This document shows, piece by piece, positions 1 through 20,509 of a stretch of 20,509 nucleotides of DNA (position 1 is the first letter of the stretch; the number at the start of each line of letters is the position of its first letter). The stretch is from Psammoneis japonica (lineage: Eukaryota). A model generated the notes under the pieces. That model was given only the letters and a program-made list of their open reading frames with translations. It did no database searches and was not told the DNA's origin. Both the position numbers and the translations under genes were made by a program. The stretch lies in NCBI GenBank assembly GCA_008632985.1, contig QPGO01000114.1:248001-268509 (forward strand). Direction: 5' to 3'.

Positions 1-3000
1 ACAAACTCCTCTGCTGGTTTGAACAAGGACTGGTCAGTGTGGTGGGGAAATGGATCACAGCCAAACAACTTGAGCACTGAAAGTTGCACTCAATTGACAA
101 CATTGTGACATGGCATGCCAAAGTCATGGCAATCACCACATCACATCCCAGCATTTGTGCTGCATTGACGTGTGTGACAAGGAGAAGCAAGAAGTGCCCC
201 ACCTCTGCACCAAACTTGATTGCAAAACATTGGGTGCACATTCTGGCTGTCCGACAGCTCAGATGCTGGAATCTTCCCCGCACACCTCACATTTGCAATT
301 TGGGCCTTCAAAACACTGCAAAGCCACAAATGCAGACATGGATCCAATGCCGCACACTCCTTTAAGTCCTCACAGATTTTCATGATTCTCCAGTCTGCAT
401 TCTGGCCAAACTTGTCAATGCATGCCTCAAGAAGTCAAGCACAGAGTTTTTGCATGCTGCAGCCCTCCAGATGATTGGAGCCCAGTTGTTTTGCTAACTC
501 CATTGTTTCAATTGCTCTTGGCGGTGCACTGATTTCCAAGAGCATGGCATCCACCAACATCAAATGAGACATTCATGGCAGCAGGAATGCCTTTTGGAAG
601 CTGGCGGCATGTCAGCTGCATCAAAAAGACCTGTTTCTGTCAAGTCAAGAACCACGACTTTATCGCAGAGCTGGGGTGGAAAGCATGTCTGAACCACCCG
701 CGTTGTCAATCAAATGCATTGGCTGACAATGCCACCCATGGGACTCAAGAGTGCCACACTTGCCACAGTGGATGCATTTGTGCTCATTCAGAGCCAACCT
801 TGTGGATTTCCCATTGTGCCCAAATGGGTCAAAATGAAAAACCCATGCAGCCCCCTTTGCCCAATTAAAAGGGTCAAGAGTCAGAAGTGACACAGCTGAA
901 ATGTTGGGCGGATGCCACTGCTGCTTGCTGTTCTCACATGCACCTGCATTGCTGGAGCTCATGACTGCATTCTTGACTCCTTCCAAGCAATTCAACAGCA
1001 GTGAGCCAGGCTGGGGTTTGCACTGAGACAACTCACACTCTTCTTTTTTGTTGCTTTGCTGATGTCATGTTCAGTGTCTTCATCACAGTCTTCATCATTG
1101 TCGCTAAAACGCGCCTCGTCATCGTCGTCACCTTCCTCCTGTCCTTGTGCCAACCCAGTTCTGGCAATGTCTGCAGCTGCAGCGAGCCTCTCCAGTGCCT
1201 GAATTTGCTTTTCCTCATCTCTCTTCTGTTTGTTGAGACACTCTTGTGCCAGAGCCTCTTGTCTTTCCCTTGCTCTGTCTGCTGGCAGCTCTGCTTCTGC
1301 TGCTTTCTGCTGCTTGGCTTGTTGCTTGCACCAAGCTTCTGCAACTGTCAACACCAGCTGAGCACTCTGCTTTTGAGCCAATTCTTTGTTTTGATCATGC
1401 TTGGCTCCAAAAACAGCTCCTTGTCCTTTGGCGTGCGAGACTGGTCTGCCAGACCCCTTTCCATTGCTGCCACTGCTGGCTCCGCCTGTGGCAATGGTGC
1501 TTCACAATGTGAGTGTGAGAGCAATGGAAAGCATTTGTGAACATCTGGGTTGCTGCAGTGTGATGACTCCTCTTGCTTTGCTTGAGTCAAGTCAATCAAA
1601 AAGCTCTGCCCACGCCAGGTGAAAAAATGCCTTTTGCACCACATGGATCTGTGCGGAGTGTTCCTGATCTTTCATTGTGCTCATTTGTTGGATGAAAAAG
1701 GTTGTTGGTGTGCAACGACCAACTCAGGTCAACACGTTGCCTTTCATTGACATCAACAAGCACCGGCACACAAACCCTGTTTCACCTCTGGAAAAGTCAA
1801 AGCATTTGGGATGTCACAATGGAAAGTGTCTCAAGCCAAGCTCTGGGTGCACACTGAGGGTGCCATCTCCAACAGCTGCTTCTTTGCAAAGATGACAATG
1901 CCCATCATTGCAAACAAAGTTCAACCTCAAATGATGCCAGTGGAGAGGTGCCTTGTGCACCACTGCACTGGCTTGTCAAAGAACCAAATGACATTGCCAA
2001 CAAAATGTTGCGCTGCACCTGTTGGCTCAAAGTTGTGCTGCTCTCAACTCCCAAACCGGGGTCGACAATGGGACACTTGGAAAATCTTAAAATTCATCTT
2101 TGCCCAACAACTTTGCTTCCTTGCATTCTTTCACATTCACGATGTGATGTCTGGCTGCTGTCGCAACTTCAACCTGCATCTTCACTCACTTTCACCCTGT
2201 GTTGTCTCACATGCCCCTTCCTTTTTTCCACTGTCCACCATCCACTGCCCCCCTCATCTTTCCCTCCTCCACACATCTGACAGACCACACCCTCTCAATT
2301 GGTCAGGGAAACTGACGACACAAACCAGCTGCTTGGAGCACCTTGAATCATCAGCCAGCAGACACACGCACAGACGTGCAGACAGGCAGAGCCCATGATC
2401 TTCAAAACTCATGTGTGTTGAGCACATCCACACATCAGTCCCAGCAGCTCTGCTTTTCCACAGCATGTCAAGCCCAGCCGGTGTTTTTTCATCCTCAACT
2501 CCCAGGGTGCTCATCAAAGGAATGCAAGAGTGGCTCAAATTGAAGCAGGGCATTGACCCACAAAACATTCTTGCCCAAACTTCCTTCAGCAAAAGTTGTG
2601 GCAAAGCTGTGAGCACTGGCCTGGGGGCAAAAATGAGAGCCATTGAGAAGGCGGGTGTTGCCATTGTTGTTGCTGGGGAGGGCCAATTTGCTGCGTTTTG
2701 CTGCTGCCATCAACACATCATCTTGAGACAGCATCCAACTGAAAGCTGTCCAGCCTTGAAATGCACTGCAGTGCTTTTTTTAAGGTGCTCTTGCAGCAGC
2801 TTGCTGCTGCGCAGCAGCAGCAGAGCCACCATGCAAAAGCAGGCAAGGATCAAGACTCTTTTGTCTCTTTTTGTCTTTCTTTGGTTGCTCACAAGGCAGC
2901 CACAAACCATGCAGGTGCGCACCATTTTTTGTGTTGGTGTGATGTGTTGATTGTCAATGAGCTCAGTCTTTTGGTGTTTGGCGTGGCACTGCCATCTCAC

Positions 3001-3723
3001 ACTGTTCTTCTGGGGACTGCTCATTCACCCAAAAAAGCTCTTTTTGTTGATGCAACAAGGCTGGTGCAATTTTTGGCAGCTCGTCAATCCAGTGGCTCTG
3101 GGATGTGCCCACACTTGCTTTTGGAGCCATTGTTGCAATGGGCGGCAAGCAGCAAAGGCAAGATCAAACATGGCAAAGTGAGCTGCCACAATTGCCCACA
3201 GATCGCCACACTTTGTTGCTCTCAGTTTGCTGCTGCACAGAGGTTGTTGGCTGTTTTCTGGTCATTGAAACATCTCTCTCTTGCTCTCTTTGTTCTGCTC
3301 TTTTTTTCTCCCTCCTTGCTCTCCCAGCATCAATTTTCCAAGCTGCTGGATGCATTTGGGGGTGTTGCTGCTGTGCAAACCAACCACCTGTGTTGGGCTT
3401 CTTTTGCAATCTTCCTTGTGGCTTGTGGCAACATTGTCAGCTGGTCAGGGTGTGCCTTTGTGTCGTGGAACATGACAAAGACTTTTTTTGCTGGTGGGTG
3501 CTGAGCTGCAGCAGGCAACGACAGCTGCAGTGTGCAACTGTCACACGCACATCTGCGATCACACATCACTCATTTGTGGGTCAATTGCACCACAGTCGTG
3601 GATGCGCGTGAAGGACAGAACGATCATGCAGAGTTGATCGGAAGTCGAAAACTGCAAAAAAGACATTGGCCCTTGGTGTCCATGTGAACAAAATGACATC
3701 AGAGAGAATGCTCGATGCAGTGC

Positions 3724-3725
<2 letters not shown>

Positions 3726-3795
<70 letters not shown>
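3726..3795. repeat. (CA)35 microsatellite
   Basis: Uninterrupted CA run, 70 bp. Confidence 0.98.
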
Positions 3796-3797
<2 letters not shown>

Positions 3798-4218
3798 CAG
3801 AGCGAGAGACAAACAACGACAATCTCGAAAGACATTTGGAAATTGAAATGGCCCCATGCTGGCCCACATGAAACAACAACAGTCATTGCCCAATGGCACA
3901 ATGCAGTTAAAACGCGGAGACATCATTGACGCTGTCAATGTCCGTCGAGTGATTCCGTGGCTCCATGTCAGCCGCCACCGCCAGAAAAAGTTCTGCTCTC
4001 ACATGCATGTGGACCAATGCTTGCACTCTCTTTGCAAACTGGAAAGATGGACAAAGCCTGAATGGCACTGAGAAGAGTTGCGCATGTCATCAGTGCCTCC
4101 CAGATGTCTCTGGCACACAGGACAGGCACAACTTGAGAGAAAGCCAGGCCACCGGAGTGAGCAAGAAAAGTGTGCAGCAGCTGCTGCTCTCTGCTCTGTC
4201 TCTAGAGCAGCGCCACTG

Positions 4219-4244
4219 CTCTCTGCTCTCTAGAGAGCAGAGAG
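4219..4244. repeat. 26-bp perfect palindrome
   Basis: CTCTCTGCTCTC-TA-GAGAGCAGAGAG; a related half-copy lies at ~4187-4210. Confidence 0.9.
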
Positions 4245-4431
4245 AGTGTGTGCACATTCGTTCCATTCATCTCAAGGGGGGGTCATTTGCTGCTTTTTTT
4301 AGCTCGAATTCGACCGAGTGGCTCGTGATTTGCACGATTTTTCTTGAATTTCACCGTGCTTCACCGTGGTGAAAACATCAAGCCACAAGTTAGTGACGGA
4401 GGTGCTGGTCCGTCTGCCAACTCTCATTCAT

Positions 4432-5046
4432 TCATGTTTTTTGTGCACCGCAGGTCACACGTGCATCAAATGTTTGTGGATGGACCACTGTGTTTTGGAG
4501 CCATGCCGACATTGCTGTCATCGTGCTTTGATCGTGGCATGCATGTGTCAGAACTGGTTTCACACCTGGAAGGAGGTGGAAAATCACTTTCCAGAAGACT
4601 TTGGGGTCTTTGTCGAGATCGCGGGTGTCAGCGACGAATGGCCAGCATGGGTTGAATGGCAAAACATCCGATCGACAATTTCATCCCCGCAGTTCATTCG
4701 TCAAGTTGTTGAAAAGGTTCATGCCTTAAAGTTGCACAGGGCCAGGAATGCACGGATGCTGCCCGTCTGGGGTGTTGATCTTCAAGTCGCGAAGGTCCAG
4801 GTTTTGGACAGATGCGTGAACATCTCTTTGGGCAAGAAGATGCATTTTTCATTTTTGAAAAACGGAGAGCTTCATTTGTGTCGCCCAAAATTCTTGTGCA
4901 GACATCACCCTGACATGAAGTTGCAACATGCAGACGGTCTTCGTTGTTGCCACCATAGGGCCCTCTCTAGAGCATACGATGGAGAACCCCTCTGGCCATG
5001 ATCTCGAAGTCGCCCCACCTACATTAGATAACCCCGATAAACACAA
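4432..5046 (-). pseudogene. Degenerate ORF of unknown (probably TE) protein
   Basis: ORFs 4849-5046 and 4432-4662 lie in one minus frame that reads as protein throughout (FWATQMKLSVFQK*KMHLLAQRDVHASVQNLDLRDLKINTPDG...VLPFNPCWPFVADTRDLDKDPKVFWKVIFHLLPGV), broken by two TGA and one TAA. Confidence 0.5.
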
Positions 5047-5439
5047 ATTTTCTAGGAATCAATAGGAATAGAATTAACGATTTAGACAACTCGTTGTACA
5101 CCTACGGTTTTTTACTGCCACGGAGCTTGTTACATGGCTGTTTTGATAAGCAAAACCTGTCAGAAGTAGGACAATGCTGCTGTGCTTCGTAATCTCTGCC
5201 ATCCGCAGTCATCCGGGAAACTGAAAACTCTCATACGAGAGACTTCTTTCCGGCCATTGCAAGTCATGGTCAAGCTTCGTTCAAGCTTCAAGCAACAAGT
5301 ACCAGAACAGCTAGAAGTAGCTAGTCATAAACCTGTGCTACTGTATGTACTCGATAATCTTCATCCCCGCAGGGTAGAATACCAAGGCTCTAATCACGTT
5401 ACACCACCGGCAACTTATTCAACTCAATAAGCGTGGCAT

Positions 5440-6734
5440 CAAAAGCTTCCCTTCTCCGGTACTGGTCGGAAGGCCCAAGTAACGATAGGGGCAGTCCACT
5501 AGCTAGACTAGAGCATTCCCTTCTGCTCTCGTAGGTACGCGATCCGGATCGTTGAGAGTTTGAAACTGATGGTTTGTAAAGTTTTCGAGAACGTCAGCAT
5601 TCAGCGTGACACACGGATACTCACGTTTGAAGGTAGACACGTCCACCGTCGTGAATTTGTACACATCCGGAAAGCTCTTTGTTAGGTTGCACCAAATATC
5701 GTGAGTATCGGAGCTCCAACGGCCTACCAATCTGTTCCGCCAGCACTCGAGCTTGCGTAATCAAGTCGGCGCCAAACTTTGTGACAATGCCTGCCATCTC
5801 AATGGAACGCCATAGCGCGCTCCCTTCCTCATGACGTACCCGTAGAAACTGTTGAGGATACACTTGTGGGCGACTTGAAGCGAGTCGTACAACAAAACCT
5901 TGTCTTCGGCCTCCTTCTTTCTTCGACGATGCTGGGACCGTCATGTCGCCTTGCCAACCTGCTTCTTCCAAGTCTTCGTCATTCTCAAGTACTCGTAGCG
6001 ACGATCACGAAACTGTCGCACCGAATCCACGTAAAAGTCATTGTCTCACATGCAGACCGTGTCAGTGCGGAGCACTTCCTCTGTCACCCTGGTTTTCGTA
6101 CAAGCATTCTGTGCGTAGGTCTTTAGACGGCTGGCAACCAGCCAGCCTGCCCCTTGTCGGCCAACTCATGAAAATGCCGTCAATCGGAAAGAGTCTCGCA
6201 AGAGAGCTGGTCTTTGGTACGGTCGTACTCATTCTTGATGACAGGGTTGTAGTCACCACGCCATACCCAATCCATCTTGCCACTGCAGCCATTCTTGGAT
6301 TGATTAAAGTTACACGAAGCACAGGTAGCGTCGTCCACAATGGCTCCCGGTTGTAGGCGATTCGTCAGAATGATATTTGGATACATGGCACAACGTCCAA
6401 ATGGTAAACATATTCGAATATGGCTTTGCCACCCGATTGGGTCAATCGCTAAACATCTCGAGCTTCTCGACAATCTGACAAGGAATCGGATTGAAAAAAA
6501 GAAAAGAGAATACCGTGAGTACAGTACAAAGCCACAGAACAAACATCAATTATACAAGACCTTACCTCGTCATGGTTGCAAATCTCGGTTTGATCCATAT
6601 CACCCTCCACTTCAATCGCAAAGGTAAGATCCCGATAGGCCTTGTCAATCAAGCCCTGTCAATCAAGCCCTGAAAAGAGCGCTCGGTTGCAAATTAAACT
6701 TGTACTCCATGTCCGAGCGGTAGACACCTGTCTC
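5440..6734 (-). pseudogene. POLE: DNA polymerase epsilon catalytic subunit, internal fragment, frameshifted
   Basis: Colinear motifs across frames: [161 protein letters not shown]. Several frameshifts and stops; intron-like GTAAG...TCAG at ~6565-6475. Confidence 0.93.
6643..6670. repeat. 14-bp tandem duplication inside the POLE pseudogene
   Basis: TGTCAATCAAGCCC x2. Confidence 0.9.
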
Positions 6735-7152
6735 ACGCGCGTAGATCGTCCACGAAAGCTCTGTCACGATGTGCTGTACCTGAGAGAATTTTTGTGGGGC
6801 GAAAAACGATTCGCTCGCCAAAAACACACACAACAACACGATACATCAACAGCACTTCAGACAGCTCTCTTCGGAAAGCAGAGCAGTAACACCTCGACCC
6901 AATACTTCCTTTTTCATTTACATTGTCTTCTTCATTTATGATGGTAAGTAAAGTTCAGTAGCACTGTGGGTAATGGAGAAAATGTACAATTTAGACTTAC
7001 AGCCTCAGTGTTTTTTCCTTTGCGTTTGCCGTCAGGTGTTTCGGCATTGGCGTCTCTCCGGATGCAATTTCCCCGGTAATTATGCGTTCTCAGCATCAGA
7101 CATGTCCTACATGACAACATATCAAAAGGGTCCGGCAGTATCATAACTGTGA

Positions 7153-8316
7153 GTTGATCGCTCCGAATAGGTTTGGTTGCATGTCTAATTTTGGTGATAC
7201 AAAACGGTACGCAATTTTCACGAGCTTGTATTTTTCCTGTTTTTACAGTTTGTGGTTGGGATAGATATCAAAGCAATACTCTCATCTAATCTATTATCTG
7301 TTTATTGTGCCATTACCACAGGAAGTATCTGTTAGTTGATCGCATCTGAATTGGGTTGGCTGCAAGTATTGTTTTGGCGAAGCAAGATAATGGTACGCAG
7401 TTTTTATGCGCTCGTATTAGCTGCTACATGGTTCACGGCTTGGATTGCTACATATCGAACATATACTCTCACGGACTCTATTGTCTATATCTTGTGCCAA
7501 TGTCACAGGAGATATAAATCAATTCGTATCCAATCTGAATTGATTTGCTTGCATCTATTTTTTGGAGAATCAAAACGGTACGCATTTCTTATGAACACGT
7601 ATTCTCCGCATTGTGCAGTTTATGGTTTGGATAGCTACATATCGAATAAACACTCTCATGGACTCTTTTGTCTATTTCTTGTGCCAATGCCACAGGAATT
7701 GTCAATGGACTTAGTTGACGCTTCACGGGCTGTCGTGCATGCATGCGTGATAAAGCACATCGGGGTCCACAGTTTTGTACAGTCATTACGGATGAGCTGG
7801 GTATGAACAGAAAGGCAAGATTCAACTGTGCACCATTGTCTATTACTCTCCTTCATCTATTGTTTTGGTGGTTCAAAGCGGTACGCATTCCTTATGAGCT
7901 AGTATGTTCCGCTTTGTAAGTTTGGTTTCTATGACTGCATATCAAAGCAATGCTCTCATGGACTGTGTTGTCTGTTTCTTGTACCATTACCACAGGAACT
8001 ATCTGTTTCTCGTAACATCACCACAGGAACTGTCTGTCAGTTTATCAAATCCGAATTGATTTGGATGCATCTATTGTTTGGGAGATTTAAGACGGTACAA
8101 TTTATCATACACCCACGTTCTCCGCTTTGTGCAGTTTATGGCTTGGACAGCAACATGTCGAAGAAATATTCTCACGAACTCCATTGTCTACTGCTTGTGC
8201 CTTGGCCATGGGAATGTCAAAAATCCTTTTAGCTTGATGGGCTGTTGTGCGTGCATGCGTGGTGTTGCGTCGGTGTCCGCAGCTTTGTATCAACATTATG
8301 GATGAGCTAGGTATGG
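7153..8316. repeat. Five diverged ~185-bp tandem units plus a twice-repeated ~80-bp spacer
   Basis: Anchor (C/T)GGTAC(G/A) at 7205, 7391, 7576, 7879 and 8093; shared ..TCTCAYGGACT..TTGTCT..TGTGCC...CACAGGA; spacer GGGCTGT...GGATGAGCT.GGTATG at ~7727-7805 and ~8240-8316. Confidence 0.88.
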
Positions 8317-8369
8317 CAATGTGTTGATAGCCAGATCTTGAAGCAATGTTACCAATAAGGAATGCAGTC

Positions 8370-8842
8370 AAATCTATGAACTGTCGGTCCCTTCCATTGT
8401 CTGATGTAGTACAAGGATCAGCTTAGATCCTATCTAGATCTCCCCTTTCGATGGGCGGAACTCGGAACAGTCTACCGGTAGGTTCAGTTCTCATGTTGTG
8501 CTTTCGTGTTGAATGTTCTACTTCTCTGGAATTAACGCTTACCTCGCAAACTCTGGCTGTTCTGTGTGCAAGAAGCAAGAGGTCGGGTGCCTTGCATGTG
8601 CTGATGCGCGTCCGTGGTTTTACACAAGACGAGCTAGAGTACAAGACAAGATTGTTCAAGAACTAGACTTGACCGTAACGATTCTTTCTTGCTTTGGTTT
8701 TGATGAGTATGACATTGTGCTTTCAATGTGACCAGAACAGCAACGCATTCCAATCACGGCTGTCGTAGGTGTGAAAATAGTGGAGTCCGGCAAGCTCACG
8801 GTTCGTAGCCGTAAAGAAGGCGACCTTGCTTTATTCAGCATC
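8370..8842 (+). pseudogene. thrS: Threonyl-tRNA synthetase (bacterial/organellar type) fragment, frameshifted and internally deleted
   Basis: K.MNC..FHCLM.YKDQLRSYLDLPFRWAELGTVYR; intron-like GTAGG...AG at ~8478-8572; RSGALHVLMRVRGFTQDE; LDLTVTILSCFGFDEYDIVLSM*PE joined directly to anticodon-domain QRIPITAVVGVKIVESGKLTVRSRKEGDL. Confidence 0.9.
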
Positions 8843-9803
8843 TATGCTTGTGATTACCTTTAGCAATGGCTTGATAGTCAGAATCCCAGAAGTAACCCAG
8901 TTTTGAGTAATGGCATTGTTGGGTTTCCCTTTTCTCAAACGCAAAACAATAGGCCGGGCACATAGATGCGGCAGAGTCGTCAAGCTTTCTTATTTTATTG
9001 CAACAGAGTCTATTCTACTAGAAATCTGTTTCTTCTAGGCTCTCAAGGCTAGAAGTAGAAGTGGGAATGGAGATCACAGTTTCATTGAAATGCTCCTAGT
9101 GCCACGTAAAGGATCCAACTCGATATGAGCTCCGTCCTTGGTAGCAGAACGTATGGACTTATAATTCCATTCCTCTCCATCAACTTCAGGTGAAAATGGA
9201 GCCTTGTAATAACCATTTCACCTTTTCCTTTGAAGCCCTGTCCAACCAAGTGAATAAATGATGCTCTCAAAGCAATGGTCGATCCCTTTTTCCAGCATGG
9301 AACTCTGTAATAAGCCAACAGCGGATGCGCAGTCTTGGTGGCGATTCAGCACTGAGCAATCTCTTTGCAATGGCATTCGGAATCACTCCAATGCCATTGG
9401 CACAGATCACATGCCAGCAACTGTGACCTTGGCATGTTGTATTGAGTATATGATGTCAGCACAAGTGATTGTGTTGTCGGTTGTGGCAGAATATGAACGC
9501 AAACTTGTCGGTTGTTGTGCGTTGCGTCGCGGTGAATTTGTAATTATTTCGGGTTTCGCCCCACAAAAATTCTCTCAGGTACAGCACATCGTGACAGGCG
9601 GAAGTACCAGCGTGATCCACCTCATCGTTTTGTCGTTCGCGCGCGCGCTGAGTGTGCGAATGCGCGTGTGCGAACGACAACAGACGATTTATGCACCTCT
9701 GCCCAGCGCAGCATGCACACCGCCGCAGCAATGATCTTGCTGCGCTGTTGCCGCTGTGCTATTGAAGCAAGAAATCCCGTTATTCTTAATCATAGCACTC
9801 ATC

Positions 9804-10331
9804 ATGTCTACTTATATGCTTCATCACAGTGCCAATGAACGCCGCAAAGTCATGCTGGAAAAGCTCGGTGGTCGCAAAGTCTTACACGAGGCGATTGACA
9901 AGTTTTACGACAAGCAAATCCACGATGAAACCTTGATGAAGTACTTTGAAGGCGTCGACGTTCAAATTATTAAATGGCATCAATTCAATCTCATGTCGAT
10001 TGCCTTTACAGAAATTCCAGAAAACTTTGACGTAATGCAATTATTGCTTACGAGGCACAAGCGTCTGTTTGATCTCGGATTGTGTGAACGGCATTTTGAT
10101 TTAGTAGCTGAGCACTTTTCAGATACTTTGCACGAAATGAATGTAGACGAAAAGCTCCAAAAGGAAGCTTTGGAGGTTGTAATGCCACTTCGTGATGTTT
10201 TTGAGCAGGGTGCAAAGGAAGCTCAGGAGCGGAAAAAGGAAGAAGCGTTTCGGCGACAAGTCATTCTGGCGGTTCTGGTGGGCGTGGTGGCTGTGGGTGT
10301 TGTACGGTTTGTTCGATCCAAGAAACATTAG
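9804..10331 (+). CDS. Group I truncated (2/2) hemoglobin with C-terminal transmembrane tail anchor, 175 aa
   Basis: Intact ORF from ATG 9804 to TAG. LEKLGG...AIDKFY (B9-B10 FY), L.KYF.GVD, HQ (E helix), RH.RL (proximal His), GL.ERHFD.VAEH. Then a charged linker, hydrophobic VILAVLVGVVAVGVV and basic RFVRSKKH. Confidence 0.9.
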   Translation: MSTYMLHHSANERRKVMLEKLGGRKVLHEAIDKFYDKQIHDETLMKYFEGVDVQIIKWHQFNLMSIAFTEIPENFDVMQLLLTRHKRLFDLGLCERHFDLVAEHFSDTLHEMNVDEKLQKEALEVVMPLRDVFEQGAKEAQERKKEEAFRRQVILAVLVGVVAVGVVRFVRSKKH

Positions 10332-10708
10332 AATAGAATACCGTCGTCGAGTGATCATGAGGCAGAGAATCTCTGATCAATTTGAAATTTTTGGCGAGTT
10401 CGAGATTGTGGAACGCTCCAGAAAGAATAGATAGGAAACTAATCTAAAGGTAGGAGAGACTTGTTTGAAGCTGATAAATCAACAGGTTTCTCTCAGCTCG
10501 TATCCATGCCAAATACACTCTACACTAGGTGGTCTAATGGGGTATGTTAGTGATAGTACCATAAAAGTGTTCTTCTGTATGTGTTGGAAGGTCAAACATA
10601 GGTATAGGCGGAGATTGAAGGTGGGAAAGGTTGAACCATAAGTCCAAGGACTTTCTCTCTAGAGGAATACAAATAATACCTCTTATTCCAACCGGAGACT
10701 GCAATAAA

Positions 10709-11390
10709 GGCAAACCGGAAGCTCCAAATGATTGTCCGAACACAAACAGACTCGTGATCAACGAGACCATGCTTAACCCGTCAAAGGTCAAGCATGGCAA
10801 AGTAGAATGGTTTAAACGGATGAACTATCAAGGAAGATGAGGTTAATAGTCACGTCATTGAAAACGGCTAGCCTCTCCATATCACCCTTGGCGGACTCCT
10901 TGTGCTCGGAAATAACGGCAACGTCATTGACAGCGACAGTGCCGCTTCATACTGTGACTAGTGCAATCGTTTGCAGCTGAATAACGGTGGTGACGAGCTC
11001 GTTCTCGTAGACAGACAAGATGTCGAGGTTGATCGTGTAGCTTGGCATGTGGGGTCTGATGATTTTCCATACCAGAATGATGCAACCAAGGCAGTCCGAG
11101 ATGCGACTCTTGACAACAGCATTGGTACAAACTGGTACAGCGAAGGAACACCTGGAACGAAATTATGTGTGTCCGAATCCTAACATAAGCGAAGATGGAC
11201 CGGTCTCTTTGAGGACAGTGATCATGTGCAATCGTGCTCAAGTTTCAGACACGTTGGGTGAATGGGTGGGGCTCTTCAATCCGGCGCGTCGTGGGCTTTA
11301 CGCATTGACGGAAAGAGCTGGTGTGTGGAGCCACTCCGTATGGTGGTGGTGATTTAGGCGCTCCGGGAGCCAAGAATGACTGCCCTCCCG
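10709..11390 (+). pseudogene. Tandem lamin-tail-domain (LTD) protein remnant
   Basis: GKPEAPNDC; LVINETMLNPSKV..GKVEWF..MN; SHVIENG*PLHITLGGLLVLGNN; LNNGGDELVLVD...VDRVAW; EGTPG; second copy IMCN.AQVSDTLGEWVGLFNP...PYGGGDLGAPGAKNDC. Stops and frameshifts present. Confidence 0.75.
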
Positions 11391-11529
11391 GTCGCTGAAT
11401 GGAACAGGAGAAAAGAGGTAACATCAGAGGCTCTAGGTGATAGCGTCGCTTGTGCTGTAGTAGCAGGAATAAAGGTAAGCACGTGTTAATAAAGATCTTC
11501 AACTCCCATCCTTACCTAAATGATATTGT

Positions 11530-13110
11530 CTAGGATTGGAGGAGCCAACTATCAATCAACTTTCGTGCCAGTACCCCATGTGGTGGAATCAACAACGGCA
11601 ACGTTGGATCATTTTCCATTGCTTTCTTTGCCACTTCGTGTAACATAACCGCTCCAGGACCGATCGATGCCTTGACCACATCGTCAAAATCAAACCAAGC
11701 AAATTCTACCAATTCTTCCTCGTCCATGTTAGTCTCTTGATTCTCATCCACCGTGGCGTGAAAATCAATCATGCAGGAACGGGGAAAAGGCCACGGTTGA
11801 GATCCGATGTACGACACAGAGTCCGTATCAATGCACACGCCGGTTTCCTCAAACACTTCACGACGAATCGCTTGTTCAAACGTTTCTCCGGCTTCGACAA
11901 AACCAGCCAGAGCCGTGTGCATTTTGGGTGGATGGCGTGGTGTCTCGCTAGTAGGGCACGATTCTTGAGTCGATTGGTGACTAGAACAATAATGCTGGGA
12001 TCCTGACGAGGCCAACTCATGACACCGCAGCCCGTACACCTTTGGCATGATCCGCCTTGAAATGTGATGAGCGATGAACCACAACTGGAACAGCGCTTGT
12101 GTGTCTTTTTCCATTGTGACAAGGCGGTTGCATACAACGCAAGCTCGTTGTGTTTCTCGTTCAGGAGCGGTGCTTGTGTTCAAGAGTACGCAAAGCTTCC
12201 TGCTACGTCAAACGATGAATCATCTTGATCATCATCCAGGTCAATACTAAAGACTGCGGAGCCATCGGAAGCGAGTCCAAGAAATGTCTTTTCGCTATTG
12301 TCTGGTACACTTGAAGACCAACAAGAGCTAATTCAGTAGGCGATGCAAACAAGCATTCTCGACCACGGACAATAACATGCTTGGAATCTGCTTGCTCCTC
12401 GAGGTTTTGGATAGCTTCTTCATCTCGTCGAAGATGCGTTGCCCGATCCAGACGCGTACATGACGCAATCATTTCATTGCTTTCACCCACAGCATCACGT
12501 AGAATTCCACTTGCATCGAACGCCAAATTGGCAGCAGCGTCCGGTTACAATCGCATGTTCCCCTGACGATTTGCATGGGTCGGGTGCACCACCGTCTGCG
12601 CCAAACAACCGGACTGACGAGTCGTCGTCTCGCCCAGCAATGGCAATAGCCGCAAAACCCTTGTTGTGTCCTTTGGGTCTAAAGGTGGGACTGGCGGCAC
12701 TTCCTTCGGCAATGGCATAATCGACATTCATTTGTTTACAAAGCGCAAGCCCCGCTTCTGCAGTCCAGTGGAGTTTTGATCGGATGTACCCGTCCGCTTC
12801 AGTTTCATCAGGCATGGCATCGTTCTTGAAACTGACGAGTTTCGAATGAAGAACTTTATCACTTTTTAGAGCAGCGGCAAGGCCTTCCGGGTGTTGTAAG
12901 CGACAGAGCCTCCATAAAATACAGCGGAAGAACATGATGGAGGAAGAAAGGACTCCACCCGCGGAACATTCCACAGTAGTCACGGTCTTTTTCAACTTCT
13001 TGAGACCATTGACCAGTCTCGTGAACGATGGTGAGCGGAAGCTGTGATTGATCACCTTGAGACGACGCAGTATGGAGAAGCAAATGATTTCTAAAAGCCT
13101 GCATTGACAT
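11530..13110 (-). pseudogene. nudC: CinA/PncC-like (NMN deamidase fold) plus NudC-type NADH pyrophosphatase fusion, multiply frameshifted
   Basis: 5' part: VTTVECSAGG, SSAVFYGGSVAYNTRKA, DYAIAEGSAASPTF.P.G..KGFAAIAIAG (CinA C-terminal fold). Then LDRATHLRRDE, zinc ribbon CSSCG...CTGCG..WPRQDPSIIVLV, Nudix box AGFVEAGETFEQAIRREVFEETGV and NudC signature SQPWPFP. Motifs are spread over several frames. Confidence 0.85.
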
Positions 13111-13282
13111 ACAACACTACAACTAATTCGCGACGATGACTAGAGTAGAAGTAGCTACCGGTAGCAGTGCTGTAGAGAGTTTGGGCCGTTGTTGTCGTTT
13201 GTCGTTGCACTCATCGAAACGAACGCGGCAGGTGTCATTCACCTGAAGAGAGAAGGAAGCATGGGAGTTAGTTGTGCGTGGA

Positions 13283-13698
13283 GCACCCCTGTGGTAGGGG
13301 AGAATATGGTGATGTCATGGTTACGTGGCAGTTTATATCTTATTCATTATATTTTTATATAAATGTCCTCACATTTATTTATGCATTTGTACACAAATGC
13401 CAATAGTAACAGGAAAAATCCTGAACACTCCACGCACACCCCTGTGGTAGGGGAGCTGTGTGTGTGTGCGTGGTTGTGCGCGCACGGCTTCGCCGTGCGT
13501 TGAGTTTCAATCTTAATATCCACACGAATGTGTATATTCCATAAGTAAAAATTTATTCAGGATTTTTCCTGTTACTATTGGCATTTGTGTACAAATGCAT
13601 AAATAAATGTGAGGACATTTATATAAAAATATAATGAATAAGATATAAACTGCCACGTAACCATGACATCACCATATTCTCCCCTACCACAGGGGTGC
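13283..13698. mobile_element. Foldback/MITE-like element: 143-bp perfect inverted arms around a 130-bp spacer
   Basis: 13283-13425 is the reverse complement of 13556-13698. The spacer holds a direct copy of the terminal CACCCCTGTGGTAGGGGAG (13437-13455), a short TG run and the hairpin GCACGGC-TTC-GCCGTGC. No TSD. Confidence 0.75.
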
Positions 13699-13972
13699 CC
13701 GGGTTCCTTTGGGCGTGCAGAGAAAAGACCCGAGCGAGTGACAGACCATTTTCATCTAAGAAGCGACCTCGCTCAGCGCGGTTCCGTCCGGCCTTCGTAC
13801 GGGACCTTTCGAAAACCACTTGCACAAAACATCACAAAAATCGCACACCATGACGAGTGCCGCCGACGCGTCGTCGTGTAGCGCTATAACTGTTATGATA
13901 ACAACTACCAAACCTTGCACACACGATCTAACAGTATTCAAGTACATGTTCATGTTTTAGATTTGCTGAAAT

Positions 13973-15184
13973 ATGTCGGTTTCATCGATTGCGCCGCGGT
14001 TGAATAGCGACACTCATGGAAGCACACAAAATGCGGCTCCGGAGTATAACATGACCCAGGAGAGGCAAATTATGCTTGTTGATCCCAAAATCAACCTTTC
14101 AATCGTTCGAGTACTTGGTTTGAAATACAATGGATGCGAGATACCACGTCACATTCTCGGTTATGATGCTAATTGGCAAAACGTTTTTCGGAAGGTCCGA
14201 GATTTCGTCAAAATGGATGCCGCTGAGCAGAAGATCGAGAAGAACCGCTGGGGCAAGTTCCCACGATGGGAAAAAGACATATATGAACGAAGGATTCGCG
14301 TATTGAATGAGCAAAAGGCTGCTATTCATGAAAAGTATGCGCAAGTAACCATCGGAACTGCAAAATTACCGCGATCAGTTTCACCCGTGCCAGAACCGGT
14401 CGCGCAACAAGCATCAGTCGCTACAGACAATGATACCGCCGGAGAACAACAGGTAGAGCCACCTAGCAGTGTATCTGACAAAAGACTGACATCAGCCGGT
14501 TTGTCAGAATCGTCAAAGGTTTTTTTTAGAGGCAAGAGCAGAAAGCGTCGAAGCAGAACTCCAGCGTCGGAGTCTGTGGAACAAACAAGCGCCCCCGCCA
14601 ACGACGGTAGATCGAGTTTCAATCTGAAAGCTACATCACTTTTTTCCCCAGTAGAAGAACGTCTGGCTTTGGTAGAAGATGCAGAAAAGGTAAAAAAATC
14701 TCGAAACACTTTGCATCTGATGGGAACGAATGCAGCTTCTCTCAGCCAACAGGCGGACAGAACTGCGATTGATTCGATTCACGCACTGTTGAAGAAAGCG
14801 GGAACTGCTGCTGATACGACACACTATCCAAATCGGCTTGATAATGAACCGTGTGTGCGTGTTGTGTGCTTGGTTTTGAACGGGATTGAACCTTCCGAGA
14901 CGGATGGCGGGCAACGAAATACAATCGACCTTCCTGCCAAAAAGCCGGAGTTGCTGTTGGTCACGCATTCAGGGGACGATATAAAGCCTGTAATGCAAGC
15001 GTTCAAGGCTGTCACTAGGAGTGAAACAAGAAGCAATGATGCTTTTCACTTTTACCCATTAGTTGCTGGCAAGGATGGTTTGGTTTCATCTGCCGTTGAG
15101 AAATACATTGATGCTTTCAAGAAGAGTCGTAGGAAACCATCCAAAAAGCCTCGAGCGTACCCTGAAGTCATCGAAGAATTATGA
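13973..15184 (+). CDS. Element-encoded hypothetical protein, 403 aa
   Basis: Intact ORF with normal amino-acid composition. Helical N-terminal region, S/P/A/E-rich linker with basic NLS-like KSRKRRSR, globular-looking C-terminus. No family recognised. Confidence 0.8.
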   Translation: MSVSSIAPRLNSDTHGSTQNAAPEYNMTQERQIMLVDPKINLSIVRVLGLKYNGCEIPRHILGYDANWQNVFRKVRDFVKMDAAEQKIEKNRWGKFPRWEKDIYERRIRVLNEQKAAIHEKYAQVTIGTAKLPRSVSPVPEPVAQQASVATDNDTAGEQQVEPPSSVSDKRLTSAGLSESSKVFFRGKSRKRRSRTPASESVEQTSAPANDGRSSFNLKATSLFSPVEERLALVEDAEKVKKSRNTLHLMGTNAASLSQQADRTAIDSIHALLKKAGTAADTTHYPNRLDNEPCVRVVCLVLNGIEPSETDGGQRNTIDLPAKKPELLLVTHSGDDIKPVMQAFKAVTRSETRSNDAFHFYPLVAGKDGLVSSAVEKYIDAFKKSRRKPSKKPRAYPEVIEEL

Positions 15185-15260
15185 GCAGTTGTTGGATGGA
15201 CAGCATGTAGTATTTCAATATCTAAAGTACACTACTAGAATGAATCAATATACTACTACT

Positions 15261-15995
15261 TTAGAAAAATTGATAGCCAGGGGATTGGGATTGAGTAAAT
15301 CCCGTCATGTAGGCAAGGTTTGTCAAAGTTGAGCGATTCGATATCTCCAGCGGATCAAATTTTTTTGTCGGGCAAAGGGTGACGAGGATGGAGTGAAACA
15401 CCTTGAAGATTTTCTCAATCGATGCTTTCATTTCGCTCGTCCAATCTTCCTGCGAGTAAGTGGGAAGAACAGTTGATACAACAGTAATATCGCCATCCTC
15501 TTTGTATTCAGCAAATGTCAATGAGGCGTAATCTTGAATCCTTGATGACGTAACATGGACGTTGCCTCCGAAGAGTTGGTCCGGTGTTTCCTTGTTGCTC
15601 ATGAAATGACGAACCGGATCCATCTTGGCATTCGGAGGAGTGATTGTACCAGTACAGGATTGTTGAATAGGTTTCATACCACCATGTCCTTGCTCAAAAT
15701 GAACAGAATGCATAGTAAAGTCAGTCGTTTCACTGCTGCATACCGAGCAGTACAACGTCGCGTCACAACCTCTCAACGCGACGGAGCGGGCGTAGCAAGA
15801 GACACAAAGAGCACATTTTCCAGCACAACCCAGCTCAATAAAGCTTTCCATACATGTATAGATCTGATTCTCACAAGCTGTACATGACTTAATGGTCGAA
15901 TGAAGCGTATCGAGCTCACAATCGACTGTGACCCTGTTTGACGGAGAAGATTTACCATACACTTTCCGACGCCTTTTTTTTAATGGTTGTGACAT
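15261..15995 (-). CDS. Element-encoded protein with NLS and RING-like Cys8 zinc finger, 244 aa (possibly C-terminally truncated)
   Basis: PLKKRRRK, then CTAC-x15-C-x3-C-x2-C-x2-C-x14-CSVC. Confidence 0.75.
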   Translation of the reverse strand: MSQPLKKRRRKVYGKSSPSNRVTVDCELDTLHSTIKSCTACENQIYTCMESFIELGCAGKCALCVSCYARSVALRGCDATLYCSVCSSETTDFTMHSVHFEQGHGGMKPIQQSCTGTITPPNAKMDPVRHFMSNKETPDQLFGGNVHVTSSRIQDYASLTFAEYKEDGDITVVSTVLPTYSQEDWTSEMKASIEKIFKVFHSILVTLCPTKKFDPLEISNRSTLTNLAYMTGFTQSQSPGYQFF

Positions 15996-16500
15996 TTTGT
16001 GACAATACTGAAGCTACCCCAGTGATCCGAGATGAAAGAGTAACCGAGTCTATTAGTGGTATTGGATAATACTAAACGGTTGTTGAGCTACACGACGACG
16101 CGTCGGCGGCACTCGTCATGGTGTGCGATTTTTGTGATGTTTGTGCAAGTGGTTTTCGAAAGGTCCCGTACGAAGGCCGGACGGAACCGCGCTGAGCGAG
16201 GTCGCTTCTTAGATGAATTTTCAAAAACAGTTTTTGGTTTTTGATCGCCATACATCCGGGTTTTTATCGAATATTTGCCACGTGGAAGCAATTGAGACTA
16301 GGCGAAGAGAGATTAGACTATGAGTCTCTATCTCAACGCACCGTGGAACGAAGGCCAGACCTGCATGACATCACGATTGCGTCAATAACCCGGAAAATTC
16401 CTTTCAACCTGCACAGGGTTTTCGATTGTAGGGAATTCCTCATTCGACCCTGAATTTCCTTAGACAAGGAAAGACAAGGAAACCAGACAGGGAAAAATTA

Positions 16501-18342
16501 ATTGTCGTGATTTGCTGCGCAGTCACAACTGACACAATCATTTCATCAAGCGGTCGACTTGCCCAGAGCCTGCAGCTGCCAACACACTTCAACACACCAC
16601 ATTCAACGAGAAAGGCAGATGCCCTTGGGCACCACAGTCTTTGGGACAAAGAGGCAGCATGATGCTCCCATGTTCTCTTCCAGCATGTTTTCTCCAGTCG
16701 AGCCCACAACAAGCTCAAGTTGGGAGAAGAGTCATTCAACAGACGCACTTTTCAATGAGAAGCTTGTCAAGCTTTCTCTGTGGCTGCCTGCATTGTCCAT
16801 CATTGACGATGGCTGTCAGGACCAGCTGTGCTCCGTGCGACAATGGCGCTCGGCTTTCAGGCTTCTTGTTGCTGACAGTCACGCACCAAAAGCATGCGCA
16901 GCACCGCCACTGATGTCACACTCTGTGTGAGATTCCATGTCAGATCTTGGCACAAAGATTTTTGTTTGTCTTCTTTCTTGTCTTGGGCTGGCCACTTCCT
17001 TGCGATCAAAAACCCCAAACCTGCAACACAAGAAGACACAAAAGTGCAAGAAGACAACCAACCATGATGCAGTGCTGATGGGCCGTGCCTCACCCCCTCA
17101 TGAATGGTGCAACAGATGCTTGCATTGAGCTGCACAAGAGTGTGTCTTGCAAATGACTGTGACATCAGAAGGGCAACAACCAAAGTGAAGTGGTCGCAAA
17201 ATCTTCTGGCAAGTCGCTCCAATTGCCAGCGCCGTTGTTGCACCACAGTTGCTGTCAAACTGTTTCTCGTGCTGTTTGTTGCATTGTTTGTTGCCATCTT
17301 GTGGGAATCAATTGTGGATGGAAATTGAGTCAGGGCCTTGAAATGGCCCTTGCTGCTTGGCTGTTGTTCTTGACAGTCTGGCCAGCAGTCGCCCCACATC
17401 ACAAATTGTTGCGGCAGGGCCCAGCACATCTGTTGCTTGCCTTCATTGCAGCCGTCAATGACCACACAAGAAAAAAGCATGGAATGAACCCAGGTCAGAA
17501 CAGCATGGATTTGAACATTGAATGACCAGGGCAAGCCGCCAGCAAACAAGTTGTGGCCCATCTCGATCTGTTCAGGTCATCCCAGCACTGCAATCTCATC
17601 CATGACTTTCAGCACACTCCACATTTTGTCTGACTCCAGTGCAAACACATCCATTTTGATCACATCAAAACATGATTCAAAAGATGACCCAAACCAAAAT
17701 CTTCCAAGATGTCTGTCAAACACAGAACACAGGCACTCCCTTTGCAAGAGTGTCTGCTCCCGACTTTTGGAGGTTCTCAAATTGCATGAATCATGTGGGC
17801 TTGGACTGTCTTGTCCTCCAACAACAGGCTTTCTGTTGTGACTGAGCTTGGTGTCTCTGAATCTTCTTCCTGGAGTGTGGTCCCTTGCTGCAGACATCCT
17901 CAAGAAAATGCTCAGCATCTGGGGGATCGACTGGTGTGGCCACAACAACTGTGAATGAGTGGGGAGAGACTGCCACCCTTGCAAGGGATCACAGTGTGTC
18001 CAAACTTTTGTGAAGGACAAGGGATGGTGATGGCACCTCGTGCAGCGACAAAGAGTGTGAGACTCGCTTTTGTGGGACAAATGATGGCAACAACAAGAAG
18101 GAAGAGAAATTCCATCCAGTCTTTTTGAGACCAACACTTGCGGGATGATTCTCAAGGGAAACTGGCTTTGCAACAAGCAACATGTCATGTCATGAGGTTT
18201 CGTGCCGGGGGTGGTTTTGATGCCTGACCAGAGAAAGCGCGTGCTGTGGAAACGCCAAGAGCCCAAAAGTTGAAACAGTTTGCAACATGACTCAATCGAC
18301 AGAAGGGCAAGAGTGAACCACAAAGCTGTGGTGGGAGCATTT
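16501..18342. mobile_element. TpA-free decayed repeat or TE relic with a minus-strand ORF remnant (~17250-17800)
   Basis: I found no TA dinucleotide between 16501 and 18342. ORFs 17577-18323 and 16857-17561 share a frame and are separated by one TGA (..KVMDEIAVLG*PEQIEMGHNLFAGGLPWS..). Confidence 0.55.
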
Positions 18343-18600
18343 TACAGCATGATGTCAAGAGCCCGCAAGTCCGCTCAGTTGACAGAGTGGCAAGAACAAA
18401 CTACAAAGCCGTGGCGGGAGCACACCATGGCAACACAAAAAGCCCGAAAATCGAAACAGTTCACAATGCGGCTCAATCGATGGAGCACAGAGTGCAAGAG
18501 CGAAGCATGGTGGGAGCATGTTCTGGTGCCGCCAAGATCCCAAAATCGAGATAGTTCGCAACGTGGCTCATTCGATAGAGCAGCAGGAGCGAACTACAAA
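18254..18600. repeat. Four diverged ~90-bp tandem units
   Basis: Recurring ..CAAGAGCCC.AAA.TYGA.AYAGTT..CAA..GCTCA.TCGA..GCAAGAG.GAA..ACAAAG..GTGGYGGGAGCA. Confidence 0.85.
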
Positions 18601-18771
18601 TGACTTGTCAGTGTCTTTCTTCTTCTTACTAACAAGTTGAACGCACCATGGAGTCTTCGCCAGGTCATTCTCGACCAACACGTTTGGATTTTTTTTGCAA
18701 CAGTACAGTAGGATTATATGTTAAACTTTCTCTAATCTTTTGATCCGTTTCCGTCTTTTCGAGCTTCTTCA

Positions 18772-19191: not shown

Positions 19192-19995
19192 TAGCTGTAA
19201 ACTACACTATCACTGAACGATACTTACAGGCCCCATATAAACCATGCCACATTTGATTGTTGTGAAATTGTACAGAAACTACAAGGTAATTCACGATGTT
19301 GTCGAAAACGGAAAGCACGAGAAAGACACGACGGTGAGCAATAAGTCGAGTTATATGCATGAGATAACAATCAACACGACTCAACAAACAAACCATATAA
19401 AACATAACATCAGTTTTTGCATTGAGTCATGCTTCTTCATTTCTATCGGTACAAAATCAAAACCATGAAGTAGGCTCTCGTGTAAGTACGAAGTGCGTCT
19501 TGCGTCTTGAGTCGAGCAAAACAGTCCTTACGGTGGCGTTTCTTATTTCGATAGGGTCCACAGCTTGCAAGCGATGTGATAGAAATTATGCCAAAATTCA
19601 GATGCTCGTTCCTGCAAATGTAACAGGCTAAAGAGCTAAGTGTTTGGAAGTTTGAGATAGCGAGAGAAATAGAGACATAACACGCAAAAACGGATTGCAG
19701 CGGCTCACCTTCAATCCATCATCCATCATAAGTCATCCCCTCCCACACTTCATCTTAAAACTCCCACTGCTGTCTCAACACAAACAAACAGCGCGAACAA
19801 AACGCGCAGTTTTTGAAAAGCAGCGACGCCATTTCAAAAACTCTTTTCAAAAACTCTCGCTTTTTTCACCACGACGAAGTGCGGAGAGTCTCGAGGCTCT
19901 TCGCCTCTTGTTATTTCGAGTCTCGCTACGGCACGCGACACGCGACACCGATCTATCGATCAAGTCCCGGCTTGGGAGGTCTGTGATTGGTACGG

Positions 19996-20142
19996 TCTCA
20001 CTTTGGTCTCAGCCATTTCTCAGTTTGTCTCAGTTTCTTCTCAGGTTTTTCTCAGCTGTCTCAGCACTCTCTCAGGGGAATCTTGGCATTGTCTCAGCAG
20101 CTGTCTCAGCCAAAAAATTGCTCTGTCTCAGCGTTGTCTCAG
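19996..20142 (+). repeat. Phased array of TCTCAG hexamers (~11-bp period)
   Basis: Exact TCTCAG at 20007, 20018, 20028, 20039, 20050, 20059, 20070, 20092, 20104, 20126 and 20137; variant TCTCAC at 19996. Confidence 0.9.
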
Positions 20143-20361
20143 AAAATCTGAAAATTAAAATTCCATGAGTGCACCAATTTTGATGCTGGAAGAGAATCCT
20201 GCAATGTCTCAGTTGACGAAAACTGCCGACTGAGACAGGTGACCGAAAATCTTGCAGAAATCCATAAAACAGGATTCCATTTTTTTTTCTTGTATGTGGC
20301 CACGAGCGTTTTGGAGTTTCGTGATCACTTCTCACTTCTTCTCTGCTCTGCTCTCTAAACC

Positions 20362-20509
20362 ATGAGTGCAAACAACCAAAACGCCGTCCCCGCCGATGTG
20401 GTCGTCCCTGGCCCTCCTGACGCTGTGGTCGTCCCTGGCCCTCCTGATGCTGCCCAGCGCGAAGAGTCCGCCAGCATTGCCGGCTTCAGCGCTGCCTTTT
20501 TCGATGCGT
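20362..20509 (+). CDS. 5' end of a putative ORF running off the window (MSANNQNAVPADVVVPGPPDAVVVPGPPDAA...)
   Basis: ATG in AAACCATG context; frame open to the window end; in-frame 27-bp tandem duplication (VVVPGPPDA x2). Confidence 0.45.
   Translation, partial: MSANNQNAVPADVVVPGPPDAVVVPGPPDAAQREESASIAGFSAAFFDA

Follow-up and report, generated by a model that had tools for sequence, protein, structure and literature searches.

Why has almost 5 kb of the genome of the diatom Psammoneis japonica lost nearly every TA dinucleotide, and what distinguishes the few that remain? The question is raised by a 20,509-base stretch of contig QPGO01000114.1 (assembly GCA_008632985.1, positions 248,001 to 268,509), hereafter the window, which has a G+C content of 47%, holds 637 TA dinucleotides and is the sole source of the counts given below. 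Its first 4,955 bases form the domain of principal interest, termed D1. The explanation that we favor, and consider probable when taken as a whole, is that a mutator of TpA steps with a flank rule has acted on old, gene-free, repeat-like DNA.

Extent of the TA loss

Three TA-poor stretches can be recognized in the window, spanning positions 1 to ~4955 (13 TA), 16500-18340 (0 TA) and 20000-20509 (4 TA). The corresponding features, to which no strand is assigned unless stated, are:

1..4955: D1, TA-erased domain, 13 TA; odds ratios TA 0.04, CG 0.34, CA 1.83 and TG 1.78; open past the left end of the window
3722..3796, forward strand: (CA)n microsatellite within D1, excluded from the product counts
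4361..4955: right-hand edge of D1, 2 TA in 595 bases (TTAG at 4391 and TTAA at 4727)
16430..18342: D2, second TA-erased domain, TA absent from 16500-18340
19992..20509: third, partly depleted stretch, 4 TA (TTAA, ATAA, GTAT and CTAA); odds ratios TA 0.12 and CG 0.70; open past the right end of the window

The 13 TA dinucleotides in positions 1-4950 stand against 318 expected from base composition and 200 expected from the TA odds ratio of 0.63 in the normal part of the window (Poisson p = 2e-67), while D2 holds 0 against ~75 expected (TA odds ratio: 0.00). For comparison, the odds ratios in the normal DNA of positions 4951-16499 are 0.64 (TA), 0.97 (CG), 1.24 (CA) and 1.19 (TG). The right limit of D1 lies somewhere in 4727-4968, and the 4295 bases from 661 to 4956 contain no TA in which the A is followed, on one strand or the other, by a pyrimidine. 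The domain borders are sharp, and genes located 5-8 kb from D1 keep normal TA.

The right border of D2 is spanned by a duplication at 18247-18522 with a period of ~181 bases and copies that are 73% alike. TA is scarce in both copies and recovers only gradually across 18343-18600.

Survival of TA depends on the flanking bases

The TA dinucleotides that survive in D1 (no strand assigned) are found in the following contexts:

363, 866, 2088, 2781, 3908 and 4727: surviving TA, TTAA
495 and 1105: surviving TA, CTAA
4300 and 4391: surviving TA, TTAG
4203 and 4231: surviving TA, CTAG
661: surviving TA, TTAT, the only survivor outside YTAR (Y, pyrimidine; R, purine)

A preliminary description of the sequence had listed eight TA in positions 1-4190, each in a TTA and/or TAA context. 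Both the positions and the contexts agree exactly with our counts, and five more TA follow up to 4950 (4203, 4231, 4300, 4391 and 4727). It had further reported that TAC/GTA and ATA were not seen; this holds for TAC/GTA, and for ATA on the forward strand, but the TTAT at 661 reads ATA on the reverse strand. Twelve of the 13 survivors conform to YTAR (six TTAA, four CTAA/TTAG and two CTAG), compared to 96 of 619 TA (15.5%) in normal DNA (binomial p = 2.2e-9). The bias is evident in positions 1-4190 alone, where seven of eight survivors (five TTAA, two CTAA and one TTAT) are YTAR (p = 1.5e-5). The context dependence of survival proposed in the preliminary description is thus borne out, and a distribution of survivors in proportion to background is refuted within the window.

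The background for each context was derived from the TA sites in the part of the window that consists of normal DNA (13.2 kb), with the expected numbers for D1 and D2 together scaled to length:

TTAA: 6 left, 8.7 expected, survival 0.69
CTAA/TTAG: 4 left, 25.7 expected, survival 0.16
CTAG: 2 left, 14.9 expected, survival 0.13
ATAA/TTAT: 1 left, 53.5 expected, survival 0.02
Six remaining NTAN classes (N, any base): 0 left, ~216 expected, survival 0

When grouped by the base after the A, sites with a pyrimidine in this position on no strand retain 12 of 49.4 expected TA (0.24; 95% confidence interval: 0.13-0.42), those with a pyrimidine on one strand retain 1 of 174.3 (0.006) and those with a pyrimidine on both strands 0 of 94.6, the latter two together amounting to 1 of ~269. 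The rule is that TAY (equivalent to RTA on the other strand) is hit and YTAR is spared, with the contributions of the two strands being additive. This differs from the suggestion that TA in A/T tracts are resistant. ATAA/TTAT (1 of 53.5 expected), ATAT (0 of 23.7) and GTAA/TTAC (0 of 42.2), each either A/T-rich or a TTA/TAA context, are erased, while CTAG survives (2 of 14.9) despite not being an A/T tract.

The rule was formalized as a Poisson survival model in which each strand adds a rate set by the base 3′ of its A. This per-strand model (Akaike information criterion, AIC: 24.4) and its purine/pyrimidine version (AIC: 27.8) perform far better than a uniform rate (AIC: 64.6), and the TTA and/or TAA rule of the preliminary description, although it correctly lists the contexts of its eight sites, fails as a model of survival (AIC: 56.0). 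The fitted relative rates by base after the A are ~0.25 for A, ~1.3 for G, ~4 for T and unbounded for C, with the order of T and C hanging on one surviving site. A preceding T is absolute and a following pyrimidine strongly favored; C and T are not rankable from this window. Additivity is reflected in the ~5.5 CTAA/TTAG survivors that are predicted by the model from TTAA and CTAG, as compared to the four seen. The left edge of D2 fits the same rule: the last flank-sensitive TA is located at 16429, and between it and 18343 only TTAG at 16461 and TTAA at 16499 are found.

The second base after the A was also tabulated for the survivors. An A occupies this position in 13 of the 26 strand readings (normal DNA: 30%) and a T in two (normal DNA: 27%). 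These small numbers hint that junctions between a T run and an A run are the most protected.

Composition of the depleted DNA and the products of change

Pyrimidine-purine (YR) steps have a share of 24.8% in D1 and 24.2% in D2, compared to 24.9% and 24.7% in the two normal parts of the window, and the 2-mers and 3-mers of the purine/pyrimidine-coded sequence agree between the domains and normal DNA to within ~1 point. With this skeleton unchanged and CA/TG in the place of TA and CG, the composition argues for transitions at YR steps. The loss of TA would require A:T>G:C transitions, a reading that is indirect, as it draws on dinucleotide composition rather than on polarised substitutions. After exclusion of the microsatellite, D1 contains 538 CA and 536 TG, and the products are therefore equal on both strands.

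Along the window, the odds ratios of CG and TA rise and fall together (Spearman: 0.55; p = 9e-8), those of CpG being 0.34-0.35 in the domains. In positions 3501-5000, however, CG is mildly low (0.48-0.72) where TA has already fallen to 0.04-0.13, and the TA loss is therefore not simply tracking the CpG loss. The latter corresponds to the well-known decay of DNA that is methylated, here putatively, and constitutes a second process alongside the TA loss. The decay of 5-methylcytosine explains the low CG values and a part of the CA/TG excess, but is unable to remove TA.

The CpG that survive in 1-4950 and 16500-18340 are themselves unevenly distributed, with 24 GCGC (~32 expected) and 22 CCGC/GCGG (~33 expected) left, as compared to seven CCGA/TCGG (~33 expected) and eight ACGT (~33 expected; both-strand, hand-scaled counts throughout). 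CpG decay may have a flank rule of its own.

That TA and CpG were lost from the same domains would be expected if both losses were linked by error-prone repair synthesis, in which polymerase eta-like patches in methylated DNA, for example following the T:G mismatches produced by 5-methylcytosine deamination, give rise to A>G changes at WA (W, A or T). Polymerase eta has a WA hotspot and an A>G bias. WA includes AA, however, and AA shows no depletion, with odds ratios of 1.25 in D1 and 1.22 in D2 compared to 1.11 and 1.13 in normal DNA. The same is true of AT (0.81) and TT (1.20), neither being depleted relative to normal DNA, and the depletion is specific to TpA. Furthermore, the combination of a >99% loss at TAY with a weak one at TTAA is sharper than would be expected if polymerase errors were the source. 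We consider repair synthesis an unlikely source of the footprint.

The flank rule also makes a prediction on the products. When YR steps between two purines are compared between the domains and scaled normal DNA, TA changes by -171, CG by -98.5, CA by +182 and TG by +58, and the CA:TG ratio shifts from 582:487 in normal DNA to 478:306 in the domains (Fisher p = 0.005). If the lost CG are assigned in equal shares to the two products, ~133 TA would have become CA and ~9 would have become TG. This points, indirectly, in the direction that the flank rule predicts, with RTAR giving rise to RCAR and not RTGR.

A TpA mutator may alternatively lack any intrinsic flank preference, with YTAR sites being kept or renewed by selection for TTAA sites, by target-site duplications or by recent C>T changes of CA/TG. 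TTAA is a transposon target word, and at the TTAA at 3908 contigs of a high-copy family break off (loose end at 3911, deletions at 3908-3912). The bias extends past TTAA to CTAA, TTAG and CTAG, however, and such a mutator gives no reason to expect an excess of RCAR over RTGR. If the survivors had been newly made by C>T, 22.6% would be expected to be YTAR, this being the fraction of domain CA/TG in a Y_R frame, as opposed to the 12 of 13 observed (p = 1.9e-7). The flank bias holds under three nulls, namely the contexts of TA in normal DNA, those expected from base composition and those of CA/TG within the domains. We regard a mutator without flank preference as very unlikely.

Repeats and sequencing runs

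Three public runs hold the stretch, all from one sample and one study, with no RNA run among them. From run X1, 1284 contig pieces were placed on positions 1-20000, of which 820 are <95% alike to the window. The summed word depth of X1, which is not a copy number, ranges from 133 to 641 over 1-3335, reaches 5086 in 3336-4002 and 3170 in 4003-4669, and is 60 in the gene block at 10006-11339. Diverged look-alikes of D1 are thus numerous within this genome, and densest in the following part:

3889..4350 (approximate), no strand assigned: look-alike-richest part of D1, taken as a high-copy repeat family, with 10 to 45 X1 contigs per listed difference at 4313-4344

Self-BLAST and a repeat search of the window yielded no other copy of D1 or D2 within it. 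In run X2 no contig was found on 1-4002 or 16676-18676, while the genes between are covered; no inference was drawn from this distribution.

D1 is a mosaic of low-copy and high-copy pieces, and the depletion is common to both. The equal depletion of such a mosaic is difficult to reconcile with a native composition, that is, with selection against TA or with foreign or satellite-like sequence which never held TA, as is the purine/pyrimidine skeleton that D1 and D2 share with the adjacent genes, as transitions would leave it. A process with exactly this effect has, moreover, been measured experimentally in another alga, according to the main text of a preprint (10.64898/2026.01.13.699255). An unmutated ancestor of D1 was not recovered, which is in keeping with a native origin, but we hold this explanation to be highly improbable.

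A comparable, very low probability is attached to a base-calling or assembly artefact, whereby modified bases in silent chromatin are misread as CA/TG. A context-specific miscall could imitate the flank rule, the public runs derive from one sample and one study and are possibly the data of the assembly itself, and the sequencing platform is unrecorded. However, in an independent k-mer assembly of X1 a contig with a depth of 65.6 covers 4361-5043 with 0 differing letters and reproduces the sharp border of D1, although its reads may be those of the assembly. Transitions also account for most of the places (828 of 1123) at which the window and its hundreds of diverged look-alike contigs disagree, as would be expected of real old copies.

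Hyper-editing of retroelement RNA by an ADAR-type enzyme, followed by reverse transcription into DNA, would produce A>G changes with the U before the edited A that ADARs favor according to the preprint's main text (10.64898/2026.01.13.699255), but is the least probable of these explanations, as ADARs act on RNA, and hence on one strand of a retro-copied element, and ADAR1/2 are assigned a 5′-UAG motif in a review table (PMC10661471), whereas here both strands have changed equally, the depletion runs on through 4361-4955 under a contig of single-copy-like depth, and TAG is spared (CTAG: 2 of 14.9; CTAA/TTAG: 4 of 25.7) relative to TAY sites (1 of ~269).

Coding side effects and protein searches

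The preliminary description had reasoned that the loss of TA would turn Tyr codons into those for His/Cys, remove TAA/TAG stops and so leave dense, spurious Cys/His-rich reading frames, and this codon arithmetic proved correct. Stop-to-stop frames of ≥70 amino acids number 8.1 per kb in 1-4950, as compared to 5.0 per kb in 4951-16499, and contain 7.2% Cys (versus 3.8%), 5.7% His (versus 3.9%) and 0.0% Tyr (versus 2.4%), with Cys and His together accounting for 12.9% (versus 7.7%). On both strands, 25 TAA and TAG are found in 1-4950 and 464 in 4951-16499. These dense, Cys/His-rich and Tyr-free open frames are a real by-product of the TA loss and not genes, and TA-erased domains consequently mislead gene finders.

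All 124 stop-to-stop frames of ≥70 amino acids across the window, including 40 in D1 and 10 in D2, were compared with Pfam. The open frames of D1 and D2 gave sub-threshold chance matches only, and the six whole frames of each domain, with stops read as X, matched 0 families, so that no transposon or viral protein family is recognizable by Pfam in either domain. A word-indexed homologue search with 4348-4998 (forward strand) returned no relative among 36 candidates, and no RNA families or tRNAs were identified in the window.

A frame of 494 codons runs across D2 on the reverse strand (16860-18341) with a single stop, a TGA at 17577-17579, as compared to ~12 expected at the rate of 0.0245 TGA per codon found locally. 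It contains 27 Cys, 27 His and 0 Tyr, and neither part shows a match in Pfam. An exhaustive HMMER search with 17580-18341 (reverse strand) gave one match (E = 2.8e-5) to the repeats of a 2085 amino acid bacterial Ig-domain protein, which was taken as chance. This frame may represent dead coding sequence.

Neighboring genes and unmutated elements

The DNA between D1 and D2 harbors ordinary genes as well as two repeated elements with normal TA:

9735..13139, no strand assigned: block of ordinary genes whose TA content is normal (TA odds ratios 0.39-0.88), taken as a contrast
9735-10328, forward strand: truncated-globin-like frame (Pfam E 5.3e-7)
11533-12207, reverse strand: NUDIX / NAD+ diphosphatase frame (Pfam E 8.8e-17)
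12498-13139, reverse strand: CinA-like frame (Pfam E 1.3e-5)
13283-13698, no strand assigned: perfect inverted repeat of 143 bases with a 130-base spacer, resembling a miniature inverted-repeat transposable element; normal TA
13751-16217, no strand assigned: element with inverted ends of ~145 bases (13751-13894 and 16075-16217) that are 94-100% complementary; normal TA
13970-15181, forward strand: open frame of 404 amino acids in the 13751-16217 element
15264-16013, reverse strand: open frame of 250 amino acids in the same element

The named sequences most similar to the NUDIX frame come from a metagenome-assembled genome of the Bacillariaceae (61% identity), Fragilariopsis cylindrus (62% identity over 40% of the query), a Thalassiosira species (46%) and the pelagophyte Aureococcus (55%). 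All matches are ≤65% identical, which marks the organism as diatom-like and as absent from the protein collection searched. No TA-poor stretch was found in the metagenome loci around the NUDIX relatives (four gene-rich loci, 33,148 bases), where the lowest TA odds ratio per kb window is 0.53; this sample is too small and gene-rich to bear on other species.

Both repeated elements coincide with junctions in the X1 assembly. Summed depth is high around the inverted repeat at 13283-13698 (1725 for 13341-14007), which is bridged by a contig connecting 13269 with 13724. For the 13751-16217 element, a contig with a depth of 69.6 joins 13754 to 16237 with nine other letters between, and an element-free form is therefore present in the same sample. 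Since contigs of single-copy-like depth join across both, the two elements are probably recent insertions missing from another allele or copy. The larger probably represents a DNA transposon that was inserted recently and has escaped mutation at TA; its 404 and 250 amino acid frames are without a Pfam family, Atlas match or homologue.

Two further structures were noted in this part of the window. A tandem array at 7144-8315, with units of ~187 bases that are 66-78% alike, is located in DNA with normal TA. In the gene region at 11866-13192, a 373-base X1 contig aligns to 12343-12575 and 13086-13192 with 27 differing letters, omitting 510 bases of the CinA/NUDIX gene region and carrying four other letters between; this contig may be a diverged second copy, or an allele without an intron-like segment.

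A putative mutator of TpA steps

Taken together, we are highly confident that the TA loss is mutational in origin and follows a flank rule. D1 would then represent old, gene-free, repeat-like DNA that is near saturation for mutation of TpA to TpG or CpA, through a process that would act on both strands and on top of which ordinary CpG decay would have occurred. The process would read at least one base beyond the TA itself, the changed pair being an A followed by a pyrimidine (5′-TAY-3′) or, on the other strand, a T after a purine (5′-RTA-3′). As a TA step is lost once either strand has been hit, only those steps which are poor substrates on both strands (YTAR) persist, with TTAA persisting best.

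That an enzyme is responsible rather than drift, as had been proposed in the preliminary description, is a reasonable inference. The most likely agent would be a DNA adenine deaminase with a T-A-pyrimidine preference, which would convert A to hypoxanthine that is read as G; the chances of such deaminase chemistry appear to us evenly balanced. The putative deaminase would be directed to silenced, CpG-methylated repeat DNA, a targeting that is suggested because the TA loss co-occurs with CpG decay.

Several points weigh against this explanation. The survivor sample is small (n = 13) and stems from one window, and the background counts are borrowed from gene-rich neighboring DNA, while the tetranucleotide make-up of the ancestor of D1 may have differed. 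The test of direction assumes an even split of the lost CG and is confounded by CpG decay and by a possible difference in composition between ancestor and genes. At position 4320, one of the six listed differences at 4313-4344, the window reads TG, in a GTAG context, where 10 other contigs have TA; if polarised as TA>TG, this is a hit at a 'spared' TAG. As the two repeated elements are unmutated, repetition alone is not the trigger. The altered base, be it the A or its paired T, is indistinguishable from sequence, and no match to a deaminase family was found by Pfam among the frames of the window.

Comparison with known systems

The closest parallel is found in the chlorarachniophyte Bigelowiella natans, for which mutation-accumulation lines have been described in a preprint (Mettrop et al., bioRxiv, 2026; 10.64898/2026.01.13.699255). 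According to its main text, A>G or T>C changes made up 20 of 20 de novo mutations in a virophage region and 210 of the 211 recorded for a giant-virus region, with all of these GC-biased mutations falling on TpA and giving TpG/CpA. Genome-wide, TpA-poor and CpA+TpG-rich clusters in B. natans were enriched in transposon-like domains, and its TpA-poor coding sequences in domains of reverse transcriptase and DDE endonuclease (10.64898/2026.01.13.699255). An ADAT2-like candidate is named, while the main text is silent on bases beyond TA and on diatoms (10.64898/2026.01.13.699255). Among the titles and abstract openings returned by full-text searches, a TpA-erasing mutation in diatoms, or a flank rule for it, was not found; of these papers, the B. 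natans preprint alone describes the process.

The footprint in P. japonica resembles that described in the preprint in consisting of A:T>G:C transitions only, restricted to TpA, on both strands and in particular stretches, with low TpA accompanied by high CpA and TpG. It differs in its intensity, with TA odds ratios of 0.00-0.04 as compared to 0.45 in the B. natans giant-virus region (10.64898/2026.01.13.699255), and in the CpG decay which here accompanies the loss. Furthermore, chlorarachniophytes belong to a supergroup other than that of the diatoms. We read the finding as TpA hypermutation of the B. natans kind in a diatom genome, with flank specificity added.

Repeat-induced point mutation (RIP) of ascomycete fungi, the functional analogue, is likewise a local, dense and transition-only mutation of repeats with a dinucleotide preference that spares neighboring genes. 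RIP consists of C>T changes that convert CpA to TpA and so raises TpA. Its footprint is thus the opposite of that observed here, where the odds ratio of TpA is 0.04 and those of CpA and TpG are 1.83 and 1.78. Duplication, moreover, is not evident as a trigger in the window, where the two repeated elements are untouched.

Position 33 of tRNA is a conserved U, and the natural TadA site is U33-A34-C35. TadA/ADAT2 enzymes and the base editors derived from them share with the proposed mutator the A>I chemistry, and the TadA/ADAT2 motif given in a review table has A followed by C (5′-ACG at tRNA position 34; PMC10661471). A variant of TadA-8e is described as editing A in a 'YAC' context on DNA (PMC13109818). 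The natural enzymes, however, act on tRNA loops and not on both strands of a chromosome, and the footprint here adds TAT and, more weakly, TAG. By analogy with these motifs, a T-A-pyrimidine preference would fit a TadA/ADAT-like deaminase better than an ADAR with its UAG motif.

Tentatively, and at somewhat less than even probability, we suggest that diatoms carry a natural DNA adenine deaminase which reads 5′-T-A-pyrimidine on both strands and erases TpA in silenced repeats as a genome defence. The system, as part of the same tentative reading, would be RIP-like but of opposite chemistry, and either shared with that of the chlorarachniophyte or convergent on it. If this is true, the spectrum of survivors, with TTAA followed by CTAA/CTAG and the rest far behind, would constitute a specificity fingerprint by which the enzyme could be picked among candidate deaminases. 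The flank rule is testable and narrows the search, weighing against ADAR-like and polymerase eta-like agents and pointing toward TadA/ADAT-like ones. A natural adenine deaminase acting on chromosomal DNA would be of interest for the biology of genome defence as well as for base-editing technology, and the presence of a saturated footprint in a diatom genome suggests that the process is widespread among marine protists.

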